Assembly: GCA_964523615.1 (NCBI GenBank)
Contig: CAZFZU010000006.1
Span: 3,761-67,760 of the forward strand
Reading direction: 5' to 3'
Length of the DNA stretch: 64,000 bases
From: an uncultured Eubacteriales bacterium
GTDB lineage: Bacteria > Acidobacteriota > Aminicenantia > Aminicenantales > Saccharicenantaceae
Shown here piece by piece: positions 40,428 to 45,272 of the stretch. Position numbers and translations under genes: made by a program. Position 1 is the first letter of the stretch, and each line of letters starts with the position of its first letter. A model generated the notes under the pieces. That model saw nothing but the letters and a program-made list of their open reading frames with translations. It made no database searches and was not told the origin of the DNA.

Positions 40428-40501
40428 GCGCCCGTAGCTCAGTTGGATAGAGCGTCTGACTACGAATCAGCAGGTCGGGTGTTCGAGTCACCCCGGGCGC
40501 G
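40428..40501 (+). tRNA. tRNA-Arg (ACG), no encoded CCA
   Basis: Acceptor GCGCCCG/CGGGCGC, D arm GCTC/GAGC, anticodon loop CT-ACG-AA, T arm GGGTG-TTCGAGT-CACCC; U27-C43 mismatch. Confidence 0.95.
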
Positions 40502-41882
40502 CTTCCCTTTTCTTCCTCGCCGCCGAACCCTTCTTGTTCCCGGGCCCGTCCTTCTCGAGATCGTAGTAGTAGTCCAGGCCGGTATGGTGGATGAGCTCCT
40601 CGCGCATGAGGTAGCGCAGGGTGTTGAAGAACTTGCTGCGCTGGACGAACAGGTCGTTCTCGGGATCGAGGCCCTCGCGGACCATGGGGCTCTTGAAGTA
40701 GAAGGACAGCCACTCCTGGATGCCGCGCATCCCGGCCCGGGCGGCCAGGTCGGTGAACAGGACCAGGTCGAGGGCCACCGGCGCGGCCAGGATGGAGTCC
40801 CGGCAGAGGAAGTTGACCTTGATCTGCATGGGGTAGTCCATCCAGCCGAAGATGTCGACGGCATCCCACGATTCCTTGTTGTCGCCGCGGGGCGGGTAGT
40901 AGTTGATGCGGATCTTGTGGTAGAGGTCGCCGTAGAGCTCCGGATAGAGGTCGGGCCTCAGGATGGTGTCGAGGACGCCCAGCTTGGTGATCTCCTTGGA
41001 GCGGAAGGACTCCGGGTCGTCCAGGACCTCGCCGTCGCGGTTGCCGAGGATGTTGGAGGAGAACCAGCCCGAGACGCCGAGCAGGCGGGCCGCCAGCCCC
41101 GGCGCCAGGATGGTCTTCATCAGGGTCTGCCCCGTCTTGAAGTCCTTGCCGCAGACGGGGCGCCGGGCCTCGGCCGCGAGCTCGAGGAGGGCCGGGCAGT
41201 CGGTCGTGATGTGGGGGGCGCCGTTGATGTAGGGCAGGCCCATCTTCAGGGCCGCGTAGGCGTAGATCTGGCTGGGGCTGATCGCCGGCGAGCTCTTCTT
41301 GAGCCCGGCTTCGAAGGCCCCGAGGGAGGCGTGGACATCCCCACCGTCGCGATAGGCCTCGGTCGAGGCCGTCCAGAGCATGACCAGGCGCGAGGTCTTG
41401 TGCCGGCTCCGGAAGTCGGCGATGTCACGCATGAGGGCCTCGGCCAGGGCCATCTTGGACCGGCCTTTCTTGACGTGGCGGCCGTCGAGGTTACGGACGT
41501 AGGCCCGGTCGAAGACGGCCGGCATGGGCGCCACGGCCTCGAGCTCGCCGCGGACGGCGTCGATGTGGGCGTTCGTCAGGACCCGGGCCTTGCGGGCGGC
41601 CTCGCAGGCGTTGTCGGGAAAGCAATCCCAGCCGCCGAAGACGAGGTCGTCGAGGCGGGCCAGGTCGAGGAACTCGCGGACCGGGACGGAGCGTTTCTCG
41701 GTCCGCTTGCCGAGGCGGATGCGGCCCATCTCGGCGATCGAGCCGATGGGGCGGGCCAGGCCCTTGCGGGCCGAGAAGACGCCGGCCAGGAGCGTCGACG
41801 ACACGGCGCCGATGCCGGGCATGAGCACGCCGAGCCTGCCCCGGGCCGGGGCGATCTGTTCGCCTCTGAGGATCTCGGACAT
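40488..41882 (-). CDS. ino1: myo-inositol-1-phosphate synthase
   Basis: ATG 41882 after AAAGGAG; GIGAVSST, GKDFKTGQT, NILGNRDG, RGDNKE, RDSILAAP, SFYFKSP. Confidence 0.93.
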   Translation of the reverse strand: MSEILRGEQIAPARGRLGVLMPGIGAVSSTLLAGVFSARKGLARPIGSIAEMGRIRLGKRTEKRSVPVREFLDLARLDDLVFGGWDCFPDNACEAARKARVLTNAHIDAVRGELEAVAPMPAVFDRAYVRNLDGRHVKKGRSKMALAEALMRDIADFRSRHKTSRLVMLWTASTEAYRDGGDVHASLGAFEAGLKKSSPAISPSQIYAYAALKMGLPYINGAPHITTDCPALLELAAEARRPVCGKDFKTGQTLMKTILAPGLAARLLGVSGWFSSNILGNRDGEVLDDPESFRSKEITKLGVLDTILRPDLYPELYGDLYHKIRINYYPPRGDNKESWDAVDIFGWMDYPMQIKVNFLCRDSILAAPVALDLVLFTDLAARAGMRGIQEWLSFYFKSPMVREGLDPENDLFVQRSKFFNTLRYLMREELIHHTGLDYYYDLEKDGPGNKKGSAARKKREARPG

Positions 41883-41911
41883 GAGGGGACTCCTTTGCGC
41901 GCCGGCGCCGG

Positions 41912-42728: not shown

Positions 42729-42735
42729 GAGCCCC

Positions 42736-43524
42736 ATGCGCCATCCCCTTACGCCCGCGAGGGCTTCGCTGAGCCCTTGGTCCCCGGCCCGTTGGGGCAA
42801 GGGCTTGGCCCGCCTCAATTTCCGGCGGGCCGGCGAATGCGCCGCCGTGCTCCGGTGGCTCGAGGCCGGGGCGGGGGAGCGGGTCCTCGATATCGGCAGT
42901 GGCGACGGCTATTACGACTGGCGCGTCAGCCGCTCGGGCGCCCGCGTCACCGGGATCGACCTCCACGAGAAGCGACTGGCCTTCGCCCGCCGGCATTACG
43001 CTGACGAACGAACGGAGTTCCTGACCATGGACGCCGAGCGGGCCGACTTCCCGCCCGGCTCGTTCGACAAGGCCATGAGCCTCTGCGTCATGGAGCATCT
43101 CGGCGACGACGAGAAGGTCCTGCGGAACGTGGCCCGGGCCCTCGTGCCGGGCGGGCGGTTCGTCTTCTCGGCCGACAGTCTGTCGAATCCCGGGCTCGGG
43201 CCCCATGAGAGGGAGCGGCACCGCGCCCGGTACGCCGTGCGGACGTTCTACACGCCGGAGGTCGTGCGGGCCAAGCTCGACCGGGCCGGTTTCGAGGTCG
43301 AGGCGACGGGCTTCGTCATGGACACGGCCTTCGACCTGGCCTTCGTCCGGATGTCCTGGGCCCTCGACCGGCTCCCGGGCCTCCTCGTCCCCGCCCGCGT
43401 GATCGGCTATCTCCTGCTCGGCGCCGCTTGGTCCGCGGTCACCGCCGCCCGGGGCCGGACGCTGCCGTCGGACGCGCCGGGCGGCCTGACCATCGTCGTC
43501 CGGGCCAGAAAGAAAAGCGCGTGA
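42736..43524 (+). CDS. Class I SAM-dependent methyltransferase
   Basis: VLDIGSGDG, GIDL, MDAE..DF..GSFD; start uncertain (42727 or 42736). Confidence 0.88.
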   Translation: MRHPLTPARASLSPWSPARWGKGLARLNFRRAGECAAVLRWLEAGAGERVLDIGSGDGYYDWRVSRSGARVTGIDLHEKRLAFARRHYADERTEFLTMDAERADFPPGSFDKAMSLCVMEHLGDDEKVLRNVARALVPGGRFVFSADSLSNPGLGPHERERHRARYAVRTFYTPEVVRAKLDRAGFEVEATGFVMDTAFDLAFVRMSWALDRLPGLLVPARVIGYLLLGAAWSAVTAARGRTLPSDAPGGLTIVVRARKKSA

Positions 43525-45272
43525 CGCCTCCCGAGACCTGCGTCATCATCGCCGCCGGCCGCGGCAGCCGCCTGGCCGGGCGCGCGGCGAGCAAGCCCCT
43601 GCTCGAGGTCGCCGGCCGGCCTCTCATCGACCGGGCCATCGACGCGGCCCGCCGCGCCGGGGTCCGCCGGTTCGTCGTCGTGACCGGATACGAAGCGGCG
43701 GCGGTCGAGGCCCACCTGGCCGCTCGCGCGGCGGCCGAAGGCCTGGCCATCGAGACGCTCCGGAACGACGAGTGGGAGAAGGACAACGGGCTCTCGGTCC
43801 TCAAGGCCCGCGGCCGGGCCGGCGAGCGCTTCTTCCTGCTCATGGCCGACCATGTCGTCGACCCGGGCCTGCTCGCCGGGCTGGCCGCGGGGGGCGGCGA
43901 CGCCGGGGGGATCGTCCTGGCCGTCGACCGGCGCGTCGAAGGCCATCCTCACGTCGACCTCGACGACGTCACCCGGGTCCGCGTCGAGGGCGGCCGCATC
44001 GCGGAGATCGGCAAGCGCATCGACGTTTTCAACGCCTTCGACACCGGGGTCTTCCTCTGCACGCCGGGCCTCTTCGAGGCCCTCGAGGAGAGCCAGGCCC
44101 GCGGCGACTTCACTCTGTCCGGAGGCGTCCGCGCCCTCGCCGCGAGGGGCCGGGCCCGGACCTGGGATGCCGGCGCCCTGTTCTGGATCGACGTCGATGA
44201 CGAGGCCGCGCTGGCGAAAGCCGAGGCGGCCGTCGCCGCCGGGCTGGCCGGACCGGCCGGCGGGGATCCGGCCTGCCGGCCGCGGCGGCCGATCGGACCG
44301 GCCCGGCTCCTCTTCTGCGCGGCCGGCTTCCTGCTCCTCGTCTACCTGGTTTGGCGGATCGGTTTCGAGGCCGCCCTCGCCCAGGTCGCCCGGTTCGGCC
44401 CCTGGTTCCTGGCGATCACCGCGATCTCTTTCGGCTGGCTCTTCCTCCAGGCCTGCGCCTGGTCCCTCATCCAGGCCGCCCACTTCCGGCGGGTCCCGCT
44501 CTCGAGCCTGTTCCGGGCCAAGATCATCGGCGACACGCTCAACGCCCTCATCCCCACGGCCAGCGTCGGCGGCGACGCCGCGCGGGCTTTCCTGGTCCGG
44601 CGCCACGCGCCGCTCGAGGAGGCCATCCCGGGCGTGCTCGTCGACAAGACCGTCGAGTTCGCCGCGGGCAGCCTGTTCCTGGCGACCGGTTTCCTGCTCA
44701 GCCTGCTCTTCGTCGACCTGCCCGGCTGGATGGACGCCGTCGCGGCGGCCTGCCTCGCCGGAATGGCTTTCGGGGTGGCGGCCCTGGTCCTGCTTCAGAA
44801 AAAGGGAGCGGCCTGGACCCTCGACCGGCTGGGCCGGTTGGTCCCCGGCGTCCGCCGGTTCGTCGCGAGGAAGGAGGACGGCGTCCGGGCCCTCGACCGC
44901 AATCTCCGCCTCGTCTGCGGCCGCCTCGACGCCCGGACGGGCGCCGCGGCCGCCCTGCACTTCGCGGCCCGGGTCCTCGGCGCCGGCGAGGTCCTCATCG
45001 TCATGAGGGTCCTCGGATCGCCCGTGCCCTTCATCGAGGCGGTCTTCATCGCGGCCGGCGTCAGCATCGTCAACACGGCCCTGTTCGTCGTGCCCGGGCA
45101 TCTGGGCGTCATGGAGAGCGCCCACGTCCTCATCCTGCGGAGCCTGGGCTTCGCGGCGGAGACCGGGCTCGGCGTGGGCCTCATCCGGCGGCTCCGCAAG
45201 ATAGCGACGATGGCGGCGGGCCTGGCGCTGCTCTCGCTGGACAAGGGATATCGGTCCAAGGGGGGAACATGA
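43521..45272 (+). CDS. Nucleotidyltransferase (IPCT/LicC-like) fused to a lysylphosphatidylglycerol-synthase-TM/flippase-like domain
   Basis: GTGA overlap; IIAAGRGSRL...KPL, NDEWEKDNGLS, MADH, DTG.F, WIDVDD; then a multi-TM region with N.LIPTASVGGD and PGHLGVME; no internal stop. Confidence 0.8.
   Translation: MTPPETCVIIAAGRGSRLAGRAASKPLLEVAGRPLIDRAIDAARRAGVRRFVVVTGYEAAAVEAHLAARAAAEGLAIETLRNDEWEKDNGLSVLKARGRAGERFFLLMADHVVDPGLLAGLAAGGGDAGGIVLAVDRRVEGHPHVDLDDVTRVRVEGGRIAEIGKRIDVFNAFDTGVFLCTPGLFEALEESQARGDFTLSGGVRALAARGRARTWDAGALFWIDVDDEAALAKAEAAVAAGLAGPAGGDPACRPRRPIGPARLLFCAAGFLLLVYLVWRIGFEAALAQVARFGPWFLAITAISFGWLFLQACAWSLIQAAHFRRVPLSSLFRAKIIGDTLNALIPTASVGGDAARAFLVRRHAPLEEAIPGVLVDKTVEFAAGSLFLATGFLLSLLFVDLPGWMDAVAAACLAGMAFGVAALVLLQKKGAAWTLDRLGRLVPGVRRFVARKEDGVRALDRNLRLVCGRLDARTGAAAALHFAARVLGAGEVLIVMRVLGSPVPFIEAVFIAAGVSIVNTALFVVPGHLGVMESAHVLILRSLGFAAETGLGVGLIRRLRKIATMAAGLALLSLDKGYRSKGGT

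Follow-up and report, generated by a model that had tools for sequence, protein, structure and literature searches.

A conserved candidate CDP-inositol gene module of uncultured Aminicenantia and other uncultured bacteria, in which an IPCT-like cytidylyltransferase is fused to an MprF-like membrane domain

The DNA analyzed here, referred to as the window, comprises 64,000 nucleotides of contig CAZFZU010000006.1 (positions 3,761 to 67,760, forward strand; assembly GCA_964523615.1) from an uncultured bacterium of the Aminicenantia. Between positions 40488 and 45272 it harbors a module of four genes, the central product of which is a 583-amino-acid protein that joins an N-terminal domain resembling inositol-1-phosphate cytidylyltransferase (IPCT) to a C-terminal membrane domain related to the flippase subdomain of MprF. 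The fusion gene is linked to genes for myo-inositol-1-phosphate synthase (MIPS), for a stand-alone CDP-alcohol phosphotransferase and, in most cases, for a methyltransferase. This linkage is conserved in metagenome-assembled genomes (MAGs) from several phyla, and the two halves of the fusion are also found as separate, adjacent genes. We propose that the module encodes a Kennedy-type (BEPIS-like), CDP-inositol-dependent inositol-phospholipid pathway that operates as a membrane-bound unit with a built-in MprF-like translocator, a reading to which we give an even chance of being correct.

The G+C content of the window is approximately 68%, and numerous overlapping spurious open reading frames (ORFs) are hence present. 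Analysis with Pfam and NCBIfam singled out four real genes, which lie at the coordinates and in the orientation that an earlier note on this DNA had reported for two divergent operons. These operons are separated by one common promoter region. The minus-strand operon consists of the CDP-alcohol phosphotransferase gene followed by ino1, encoding MIPS, whereas the plus-strand operon contains a class-I S-adenosylmethionine (SAM)-dependent methyltransferase gene followed by the fusion gene, the stop codon of the former overlapping the start codon of the latter (GTGA).

The ORF of the fusion extends from 43428 to 45272 on the plus strand; the public gene call starts at GTG 43521, giving 583 amino acids with matches to PF12804 (6e-17) and PF03706 (6e-26). 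A search of 5.8 billion proteins retrieved approximately 87 full-length homologues (572-609 amino acids, 58-90% identity), all of which share the PF12804 + PF03706 architecture, along with one remoter homologue of 45% identity. Furthermore, a gapless contig across positions 42500-45400 with 0-1 mismatches was found in four sequencing runs, each from a different study. Because of these homologues of identical architecture and the gapless contigs in four independent metagenomes, the fusion of a nucleotidyltransferase with a multi-transmembrane (TM) domain that the earlier note had described is genuine and not a sequencing artifact, and its architecture is widespread. Exact matches to the window sequence occurred in 20 or more runs, whose sources are wastewater, sludge, anaerobic digesters, sediment, and soil, and the samples of the carriers were not labelled as hot environments. 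In species-representative genomes, among which the best 80 IPCT relatives were considered, the full-length fusion was confined to MAGs, mostly labelled Aminicenantes or Acidobacteria-type. Public names of the protein include "1L-myo-inositol 1-phosphate cytidylyltransferase" (JGI), "NTP transferase domain-containing protein" (NCBI), and [quoted passage not shown], each of which describes just a part of it. One homologue (P0090) resembled a triple fusion of methyltransferase, nucleotidyltransferase, and TM domain; this candidate was rejected, as the ORFs at this site of a long-read-style MAG contig (locus L013, 5098-8120) are broken by frameshifts. It is probably an indel artifact, which is easily produced because of the natural 4-nt gene overlap.

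The N-terminal 245 residues (43521..44255, plus strand) form the IPCT-like cytidylyltransferase domain. Its top NCBIfam match was the IPCT half of NF041135, the model of the bifunctional IPCT/DIPPS, with 3e-35 and 122 bits; the cut-off of 580 bits applies to the whole bifunctional protein and is unreachable for the IPCT half alone. The closest sequences in the PDB were those of the Archaeoglobus fulgidus IPCT/DIPPS (4mnd, 1.4e-23), the A. fulgidus IPCT (2xme, 6.9e-23), and the Thermotoga maritima IPCT (4jd0, 9e-15), followed by MurU (1e-11), whereas the phosphocholine enzyme LicC (1jyk) was matched with an E value of 0.06. The domain is approximately 30% identical to AfIPCT, with which it has motif blocks in common. 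An AlphaFold model of the full-length protein, with a predicted local distance difference test score (pLDDT) of 82.9, gave Foldseek TM-scores of 0.83-0.86 to the IPCT structures 2xme, 2xmh, and 4jd0. The GxGxR...K signature and the catalytic Asp are present, and G13, G15, R17, K25, and D110 were invariant in 29 homologues; R17, K25, and D110 correspond to the catalytic residues R16, K26, and D112 of TmIPCT (PMC12275187). Relatives of this domain at 45-53% identity are fused to CDP-alcohol phosphotransferases and, in one case (P0112), to a MIPS domain. Taken together, the top matches in NCBIfam, the PDB, and Foldseek, all of them IPCTs, indicate that the nucleotidyltransferase is IPCT-like and not LicC-like, the two possibilities that the earlier note had named.

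Both domains are connected by a flexible Arg/Pro-rich linker (44256..44291, plus strand; ...GDPACRPRRPIGPAR...). In the full-length model, linker residues 245-257 have a pLDDT below 50, and a disordered Arg-rich linker would be consistent with a cytoplasmic IPCT domain that precedes a first helix of N-in orientation.

The remaining approximately 320 residues (44292..45272, plus strand) constitute an LPG_synthase_TM/HpnL-like domain that resembles subdomain 1 of MprF. Its score with PF03706 was 92.0 bits, compared to a cut-off of 33.4, and the match covered profile positions 7-300 of 302. The best named subfamily was HpnL (TIGR03476) with 117.9 bits, which is under the cut-off of 195.65. Among the window ORFs that were scanned against Pfam, which did not include every ORF, no match to a hopanoid-synthesis family was found. 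An AlphaFold model of the TM half alone (pLDDT 87.5, predicted TM-score [pTM] 0.84) matched six MprF cryo-electron microscopy structures in Foldseek, with TMq values of 0.52-0.62 and a probability of 1.00, as compared to approximately 0.3 for CitS and 0.23 or less for nearly all remaining targets. The model shows eight long helices and two helix-break-helix elements, corresponding to MprF subdomain 1. The breaks are located at P88-G94 and P268-E275, and residues P88, G93, G94, P268, G272, and E275 are invariant. The same was observed for E233 and R299/R300/R302 in fused and unfused forms, even in unfused relatives of only 20% identity. E275 and R299 are 24 residues apart, on helices equivalent to TM7b and TM8, and the gate pair Glu280/Arg304 of RtMprF has the same spacing (PMC8131360), a correspondence that is a positional analogy and not an alignment. 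The YRxxY motif of MprF TM8 is not present in the TM half.

The Pfam model and the fold comparison thus place the TM half in relation to MprF, in line with the flippase-like domain that had been proposed for it. The TM domains of MprF are lipid-binding and lipid-translocating, and the scramblase activity of PaMprF is promiscuous and energy independent (PMC8131360, PMC11980842). By analogy with MprF, there is a weak indication that the TM domain may likewise carry out translocation. The polar intramembrane residues E233, E275, and R299/R300 do not vary between fused and split versions of the module, which argues that this domain does more than anchor IPCT.

The CDP-alcohol phosphotransferase (41912..42601, minus strand) is a stand-alone protein of 229 amino acids with approximately six TM helices (PF01066, 2.5e-16). 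It contains the full signature D93xxD96G97xxA100R101...G110xxxD114xxxD118, and all eight residues were invariant in 22 homologues; this signature is superfamily-wide and does not discriminate DIPPS. When its family profile was compared with the PDB, AF2299 scored highest (77.7 bits, across all six helices), followed by AfDIPPS (52.7 bits), MtPIPS (43.1 bits), RsPIPS of R. salmoninarum (30.7 bits), and PgsA (21.5 bits). All NCBIfam cut-offs were missed widely, namely, those for AIPS (62.6 versus 180 bits), PIPS (51 versus 170 bits), BT_1523-type enzymes (40.8 versus 350 bits), and DIPPS (NF041135; 50 versus 580 bits), and the DVU_1551 and DVU_1556 families of NCBIfam gave only weak matches far under the cut-off. 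Among 1.84 billion representative proteins, the subfamily comprises approximately 29 clusters (50% identity) at E values of 1e-30 or less; its members are stand-alone proteins of 225-240 amino acids that co-occur with the fusion on shared contigs. The next-nearest 118 cluster representatives matched the IPCT/DIPPS model in 39 cases (at 1e-30 or less), the AIPS model in 5, and the PIPS model in 1. In the loci that we retrieved (L numbers), the next-best scorers with the family profile were the Nitrospinales phosphotransferases encoded beside split LPG_TM and IPCT genes. A neighbor-joining tree, which is rough (no bootstrap, a 125-amino-acid core, partial PDB sequences, and an outgroup of our choice) and serves as supporting evidence only, placed the window family beside these Nitrospinales enzymes and outside the clade of AfDIPPS, AF2299, and the IPCT-fused enzymes.

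Judged from its sequence, the phosphotransferase represents a new subfamily in the branch that uses soluble CDP-alcohol donors, and it is the sole conserved candidate consumer of CDP-inositol. Since its nearest relatives are IPCT-fused (DIPPS-like) enzymes and AF2299, and not the PIP synthases that use CDP-diacylglycerol, there is a fairly strong case for CDP-inositol, rather than CDP-diacylglycerol, as its donor.

The second gene of the minus-strand operon, ino1 (40488..41882), encodes a myo-inositol-1-phosphate (inositol-3-phosphate) synthase of approximately 464 amino acids. The ORF (40488-41948, minus strand) matched PF07994 (2e-89) and PF01658 (4e-31). Its likely start is ATG 41882, which is preceded by AAGGAG 7 nt upstream and falls 29 nt past the phosphotransferase stop. 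Orthologues with 74-90% identity occupy the same position in L001-L014 and L017.

The methyltransferase (42736..43524, plus strand; approximately 262 amino acids) is an accessory part of the module, which adjoins the fusion gene in most loci and is missing in L003/L004 and L017. Its ORF opens at 42700, and the start is uncertain, with ATG 42727 and ATG 42736 as options. The protein matched PF08241 (3e-20) and PF13649 (2e-18), and its C-terminal segment is moderately hydrophobic. An assignment of its substrate was attempted with Pfam, NCBIfam, and the PDB and abandoned, as only generic class-I matches were obtained. These include phosphoethanolamine/phospholipid N-methyltransferases, UbiG, a glucose O-methyltransferase, and CFA-synthase-like enzymes, and the best PDB matches were generic small-molecule and lipid methyltransferases. 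The alignment revealed family-specific motifs that give no clue to the substrate. The idea that this enzyme acts on the product of the module, as put forward previously, thus found no support in an enzyme that is generic and absent from some otherwise intact modules.

The analysis of gene context revealed the same arrangement, with MIPS and phosphotransferase genes on one strand and, divergently, the optional methyltransferase gene and the IPCT::TM fusion on the other, in 14 of the retrieved loci (L001-L004, L006-L014, L017). These belong to Acidobacteria, Aminicenantes, Latescibacteria, and similar MAGs, and their flanks are otherwise unrelated. The MIPS gene was located less than 2 kb from the fusion in all 14 and was also present in the split loci of Nitrospinales. 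The linkage of the nucleotidyltransferase to MIPS and a CDP-alcohol phosphotransferase, noted initially in this one genome, is therefore invariable across the modules retrieved. In the clade of 45% identity, the fusion gene is followed by that of a phosphotransferase of approximately 420 amino acids (L005 and L016), and in L005 the MIPS gene immediately precedes that of the fusion; the fusion and phosphotransferase ORFs of L015 look broken by frameshifts. The L005 module (4904-9565) is placed beside genes for two class-I/II aminotransferases, an AMP-dependent ligase, and an 83-amino-acid ORF. The aminotransferases are possibly serine-palmitoyltransferase/KBL-like, and the layout recalls bacterial sphingolipid cassettes, an analogy that hints at a ceramide acceptor in this clade.

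In Nitrospinales (L032, 1459-8820; L073; L091, 5828-12729), the parts of the module are separate adjacent genes that encode an LPG_synthase_TM protein of 337-339 amino acids (PF03706, 92 bits), an IPCT of 241-243 amino acids, a phosphotransferase of 410-413 amino acids, and MIPS. The occurrence of the same pair in fused and in split form supports a functional link between the IPCT and the TM domain. The Nitrospinales phosphotransferase possesses approximately 200 additional N-terminal residues without assignment, the modules adjoin a gene for a B12-binding radical-SAM protein (609-613 amino acids), and L032 and L073 contain a second, small CDP-alcohol phosphotransferase (205 amino acids).

Two further arrangements were observed in Aminicenantes. 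The Aminicenantes-like loci L089 and L090 (7001-8065 in both) are syntenic with L003 (6346-11812), including an MR_MLE neighbor with 78% identity. They are devoid of MIPS, the phosphotransferase, and the IPCT domain, and they keep a stand-alone LPG_synthase_TM protein of 354 amino acids, which shares 66% identity with the TM half and retains every conserved motif. These loci look like a natural TM-only variant. A TM domain that is kept as a stand-alone copy where the inositol genes are absent does not serve merely to anchor IPCT. In Saccharicenans/Aminicenantes MAGs (L018-L022), a stand-alone IPCT of 52-54% identity is mostly followed by two CDP-alcohol phosphotransferase genes (440-457 amino acids), and no LPG_synthase_TM domain was detected in these five loci. 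Since this layout differs from that of the fusion module, at least two CDP-inositol gene layouts exist within Aminicenantes.

The two operons of the window share a 134-bp divergent promoter region (42602..42735). A scan of positions 40300-46900 for sigma-70-like promoters gave 3 hits, as compared to 0.2 ± 0.5 in shuffled sequences. In the spacer, TTGACA-17-TAGAAT (42687-42659, minus strand) agrees with 11 of 12 consensus positions and TTGCCG-17-TATAAT (42700-42728, plus strand) with 10 of 12; these back-to-back elements are sigma-70-type consensus matches only. ATG 42727, the first one in frame in the methyltransferase gene, overlaps the plus-strand -10 box TATAAT (42723-42728), and the next ATG (42736) approximately coincides with the expected transcription start, so that the methyltransferase mRNA may be leaderless. 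A few exact contigs of 150-355 nt from three metatranscriptome-type runs match the phosphotransferase gene, both halves of the fusion gene, and the downstream 510-amino-acid ORF. They are a weak sign of transcription, too thin for defining operons and possibly affected by DNA carry-over. The locus is bounded by tRNA-Arg(ACG) (40428-40502, plus strand), which overlaps the last 15 nt of the opposite-strand ino1 ORF. In L001 and L002, 88%-identical relatives of the window, a phage-like block (1-6157 in each) with an integrase, Peptidase_S77 and, in L001, a weak TerL match is situated just past ino1, which suggests an integration hotspot at the tRNA-Arg/ino1 boundary.

Downstream of the fusion gene, and overlapping its stop codon (ATGA), is an ORF for a protein of 510 amino acids (45269..46801, plus strand) that matched no family in Pfam or NCBIfam and no PDB sequence. 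Inspection by eye revealed the motifs FFSGGVDS (PP-loop-like SGGxDS) and CGRCSKC, suggestive of an ATP-pyrophosphatase-type enzyme. Of the loci retrieved, the closest relatives L002, L006, and L013 alone have this ORF in full, and L001 contains a truncated copy of 207 amino acids. As a fifth conserved component it was rejected: the ORF at the same position in L003 is unrelated, and L007 and L008 have none, so that its membership in the module is uncertain. It is followed by genes for ATPgrasp_ST (46796-48037, minus strand), an SDR epimerase (48202-49281, plus strand), a Gfo/Idh/MocA oxidoreductase (49283-50392, plus strand), and a GT4 glycosyltransferase (50364-51581, plus strand), all assigned with Pfam. 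Co-location of these four with the module was seen only in L002, L006, and L013, and they are not beside it in L003, L007, and L008; they may modify its product but are outside the conserved core. They also begin a run of cell-surface glycan genes (46796-63403), which continues with a PKD-repeat protein of approximately 955 amino acids (minus strand), a GT2 (minus strand), an enolase-C-like protein, and a histidine phosphatase and ends with a TupA-like ATP-grasp protein and a Polysacc_synt_3 flippase (both minus strand). L001 and L002 encode an identical fusion protein (P0006) and differ downstream of position 11752, where L002 has the 510-amino-acid ORF, ATPgrasp_ST, SDR, Gfo/Idh/MocA, and GT4 genes and L001 the 207-amino-acid copy followed by unrelated genes. 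This difference is either a strain-level rearrangement or due to a chimeric assembly.

In the pathway that we propose, MIPS would convert glucose-6-phosphate into L-myo-inositol-1-phosphate, and the cytoplasmic IPCT domain would use it together with CTP to form CDP-inositol at the membrane surface. The 6-TM phosphotransferase would then transfer phospho-inositol from CDP-inositol to a membrane alcohol, corresponding to the BEPIS-type reaction of Rhodothermus; candidate alcohols are diacylglycerol, an alkyl/ether glycerol, and ceramide. The MprF-like domain would keep IPCT at the membrane and bring the newly made inositol lipid into the outer leaflet, a step modelled on MprF, which moves the lipid made by its own synthase domain. 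Where present, the co-transcribed methyltransferase would modify the head group or the lipid, targets for which the indication is weak. A more specific form of this proposal, which we put forward tentatively and consider possible at most, is that the MprF-like domain is a dedicated inositol-phospholipid scramblase or flippase and associates in the membrane with the 6-TM phosphotransferase, to which its lipid-binding cavity would deliver the lipid acceptor or from which it would remove the product. The phosphotransferase in such a membrane complex would be an enzyme without the extra helices that are normal for lipid-acceptor CDP-alcohol phosphotransferases.

A number of observations weigh against the proposed lipid pathway. 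The product of IPCT is soluble, so that the analogy with MprF, in which the synthase makes the lipid that is flipped, is indirect. MprF subdomain 2 (TM9-14) is absent from the TM half, as is the GNAT-type aminoacyl-phosphatidylglycerol synthase domain, and the protein ends approximately 10 residues past the eighth long helix; the TM half is thus not an MprF but only a relative of its flippase subdomain. Neither the single sequence of the TM half nor a 12-member profile matched any PDB sequence. The methyltransferase is a generic enzyme and dispensable, and every carrier of the fusion in the genome scan is an uncultured MAG. Nor is the substrate settled by similarity to IPCT: TmIPCT is also the top structural match of CpgD, which uses phosphoglycerate (PMC12275187). 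In view of this precedent the fold alone is insufficient, and it is mainly because of the invariable linkage to MIPS that we strongly infer inositol-1-phosphate to be the substrate of the IPCT domain. As for the acceptor, the nearest relatives of the phosphotransferase are DIPPS-like, and according to Clarke et al., 6-TM enzymes take soluble acceptors, whereas lipid-acceptor enzymes carry 3-4 extra helices (PMC4634129). The size of the enzyme hence makes a lipid acceptor less likely, except if this function is contributed by the partner TM domain, and the case for such an acceptor is weak. The earlier note had favored a lipid or glycan substituent over a soluble product, a preference not borne out by the size and the relatives of the phosphotransferase.

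These same properties are those expected if the module made a soluble solute. A DIPPS-type enzyme would condense CDP-inositol and inositol-1-phosphate to di-myo-inositol phosphate phosphate (DIPP), giving di-myo-inositol phosphate (DIP) or a related phosphodiester, and the TM domain would only tether IPCT, for which the covalent IPCT-DIPPS fusion of Archaeoglobus offers a parallel. Six helices are typical of soluble-acceptor enzymes (PMC4634129), AF2299 and AfDIPPS are the best solved relatives of the phosphotransferase, the IPCT/DIPPS model was matched by one-third (39/118) of its next-nearest relatives, and IPCT/DIPPS genes have reportedly been proposed to serve osmolyte or piezolyte production in sediment microbes that are not thermophilic. 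However, a mere anchor leaves unexplained an MprF fold of approximately 320 residues with invariant intramembrane Glu and Arg, as well as the persistence of the TM domain as a gene of its own in Nitrospinales and after the loss of the inositol genes. In addition, the phosphotransferase falls outside the clade of AfDIPPS, AF2299, and IPCT-fused enzymes in the rough tree, scores 50 bits on a DIPPS equivalog model with a cut-off of 580, and comes from carriers whose samples were not labelled hot. We therefore regard a soluble product as rather unlikely. In another alternative, the acceptor of phospho-inositol is not a glycerolipid but, for example, a surface or lipid-linked glycan, a glycolipid, or another polyol lipid, and the MprF-like domain exports the carrier decorated in this way; in the lineage of the window, the acceptor would be assembled by the products of the neighboring sugar-modifying and polysaccharide genes. 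The ATPgrasp_ST, SDR, Gfo/Idh/MocA, GT4, GT2, TupA-like ATP-grasp, and Polysacc_synt_3 genes downstream in the window, the translational coupling of the 510-amino-acid gene to the fusion, and the JGI name "glycosyltransferase 2 family protein" for the Nitrospina LPG_TM relatives are in accordance with this. The glycan substituent that the earlier note had left as an option is thus weakly supported, and in this lineage only, by genes nearby that do not belong to the conserved module: they are neighbors only in the closest relatives, and the core in L003, L007, and L008 has unrelated flanks. Moreover, we know of no CDP-alcohol phosphotransferase that decorates glycans, and we find this alternative distinctly improbable.

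Two further explanations concern the substrates of the enzymes. The nucleotidyltransferase might activate another phospho-alcohol (phosphoglycerate, phosphocholine, or glycerol phosphate), which the phosphotransferase would install, with MIPS as a mere neighbor; CpgD, with its phosphoglycerate substrate and its structural match to TmIPCT (PMC12275187), and the binding of CDP-glycerol by AF2299, the best solved relative of the phosphotransferase (PMC4634129), illustrate how this could be. We nevertheless consider it very unlikely, given that MIPS adjoins every complete module across phyla, the split version of Nitrospinales included, that the nucleotidyltransferase family includes the MIPS-domain fusion P0112, and that the domain shares approximately 30% identity and motif blocks with AfIPCT, compared to an E value of 0.06 for LicC. 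Alternatively, the phosphotransferase could be of the phosphatidylinositol phosphate (PIP)/archaetidylinositol phosphate (AIP) synthase type, acting on CDP-diacylglycerol and inositol-1-phosphate, and CDP-inositol would be used elsewhere, possibly by the TM domain as a transferase. The highest single NCBIfam scores were indeed those of AIPS (62.6 bits) and PIPS (51 bits), and an enzymatic role has been speculated for HpnL-type proteins (bioRxiv 10.1101/2025.07.29.667474). These scores are far under the cut-offs (180 and 170) and limited to the common catalytic motif region, whereas the family profile puts AF2299 and DIPPS above the PIP synthases; furthermore, the MprF TM fold is without known catalytic activity (PMC8131360), and no PIP phosphatase is conserved in the module in the retrieved loci. 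Of all the explanations weighed here, we hold this one to be the least probable.

Bacterial inositol lipids are considered rare. To our knowledge, Rhodothermus is the only organism in which the Kennedy-type route via CDP-inositol has been demonstrated, and for which Jorge et al. reportedly described CDP-inositol-dependent dialkylether glycerophosphoinositol synthesis in 2015; for some Bacteroidota the route has been proposed. If the lipid pathway proposed here is true, the known range of the route would grow considerably, to include Aminicenantes, Acidobacteriota, and Latescibacteria-type MAGs, with a split form in Nitrospinales. The module ties this pathway to a large family of uncharacterized MprF-like proteins (YbhN, HpnL, BT_1521), and the fusion offers a compact cassette of three or four genes for probing MprF-like domains and a little-studied lipid pathway. 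Should the MprF-like domain be a dedicated translocator, the fusion would be the first of a head-group-activating enzyme with a lipid translocator. It would also provide a function for the LPG_synthase_TM proteins encoded beside inositol-lipid genes in Nitrospinota and Bacteroides (BT_1521 type), and CDP-inositol-dependent, possibly methylated inositol lipids would be surface exposed in several abundant uncultured phyla.

The individual principles are already known: the CDP-inositol logic from Rhodothermus and, as a proposal, from Bacteroides; the fusion of IPCT with a membrane enzyme from IPCT/DIPPS; and the fusion of an enzyme with a flippase from MprF. In the literature, we did not find the combination of an IPCT::MprF-subdomain-1 fusion with a 6-TM phosphotransferase subfamily and a frequent methyltransferase, nor its occurrence across Aminicenantes/Acidobacteriota-type MAGs and, in split form, in Nitrospinales. 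What the earlier note had stated about published systems agrees with the sources (PMC4587543, PMC9246714, PMC8131360). According to PMC4587543, which summarizes the study of Jorge et al. that PMC9246714 also cites, an operon of MIPS, IPCT, and BEPIS genes in Rhodothermus marinus makes ether inositol lipids. The module resembles it in that MIPS, an IPCT-type cytidylyltransferase, and a CDP-alcohol phosphotransferase are encoded in one locus, and that inositol, not the lipid, is activated. In contrast, IPCT is here fused to an MprF-like domain of eight helices, a methyltransferase is usually co-transcribed, and the hosts belong to Acidobacteriota, Aminicenantes, and similar phyla and are uncultured; BEPIS was compared by description, and no Rhodothermus was among the best 80 IPCT relatives in the genome scan. 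In an alternative cluster of Bacteroides/Prevotella, MIPS is encoded beside an NTP-transferase and a CDP-alcohol phosphotransferase, and synthesis of phosphatidylinositol (PI) via CDP-inositol has been proposed (Heaver et al. 2022, PMC9246714). A gene annotated as "lysylphosphatidylglycerol synthase" (BT_1521 homologue) is a repeated neighbor of inositol-lipid clusters of both types in Bacteroides (PMC9246714). The genes of that cluster are separate and include a HAD hydrolase (proposed PI-dihydroceramide synthase), and the pathway itself is unconfirmed; the present module, compared by description, has no HAD, unites nucleotidyltransferase and TM domain in one polypeptide, and adds a methyltransferase.

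The closest solved relatives of the N-terminal domain are the Archaeoglobus IPCT/DIPPS (4MND) and the stand-alone IPCTs (2XME, 4JD0). As in the Archaeoglobus enzyme, IPCT is tethered to a membrane protein; however, its fused partner is here an MprF-type domain, and the phosphotransferase is the product of a separate gene that falls outside the DIPPS/AF2299 clade in the rough tree. HpnL (TIGR03476), a hopanoid-locus protein, belongs to the same LPG_synthase_TM/AglD superfamily as the TM half, which scores under its cut-off. With respect to MprF (7DUW, 6LVF, 9GOE), the fusion differs in having the enzyme at the N terminus instead of the C terminus, in the soluble, activated head group that would be its product, and in containing subdomain 1 only, with no detectable sequence similarity to the solved MprFs. 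What both have in common is the joining of a biosynthetic enzyme to a domain of the lipid-translocating type and, in the TM half, two inverted helix-break-helix motifs; the conserved Glu...Arg pair, at a spacing of 24 residues, recalls that of RtMprF by position only.

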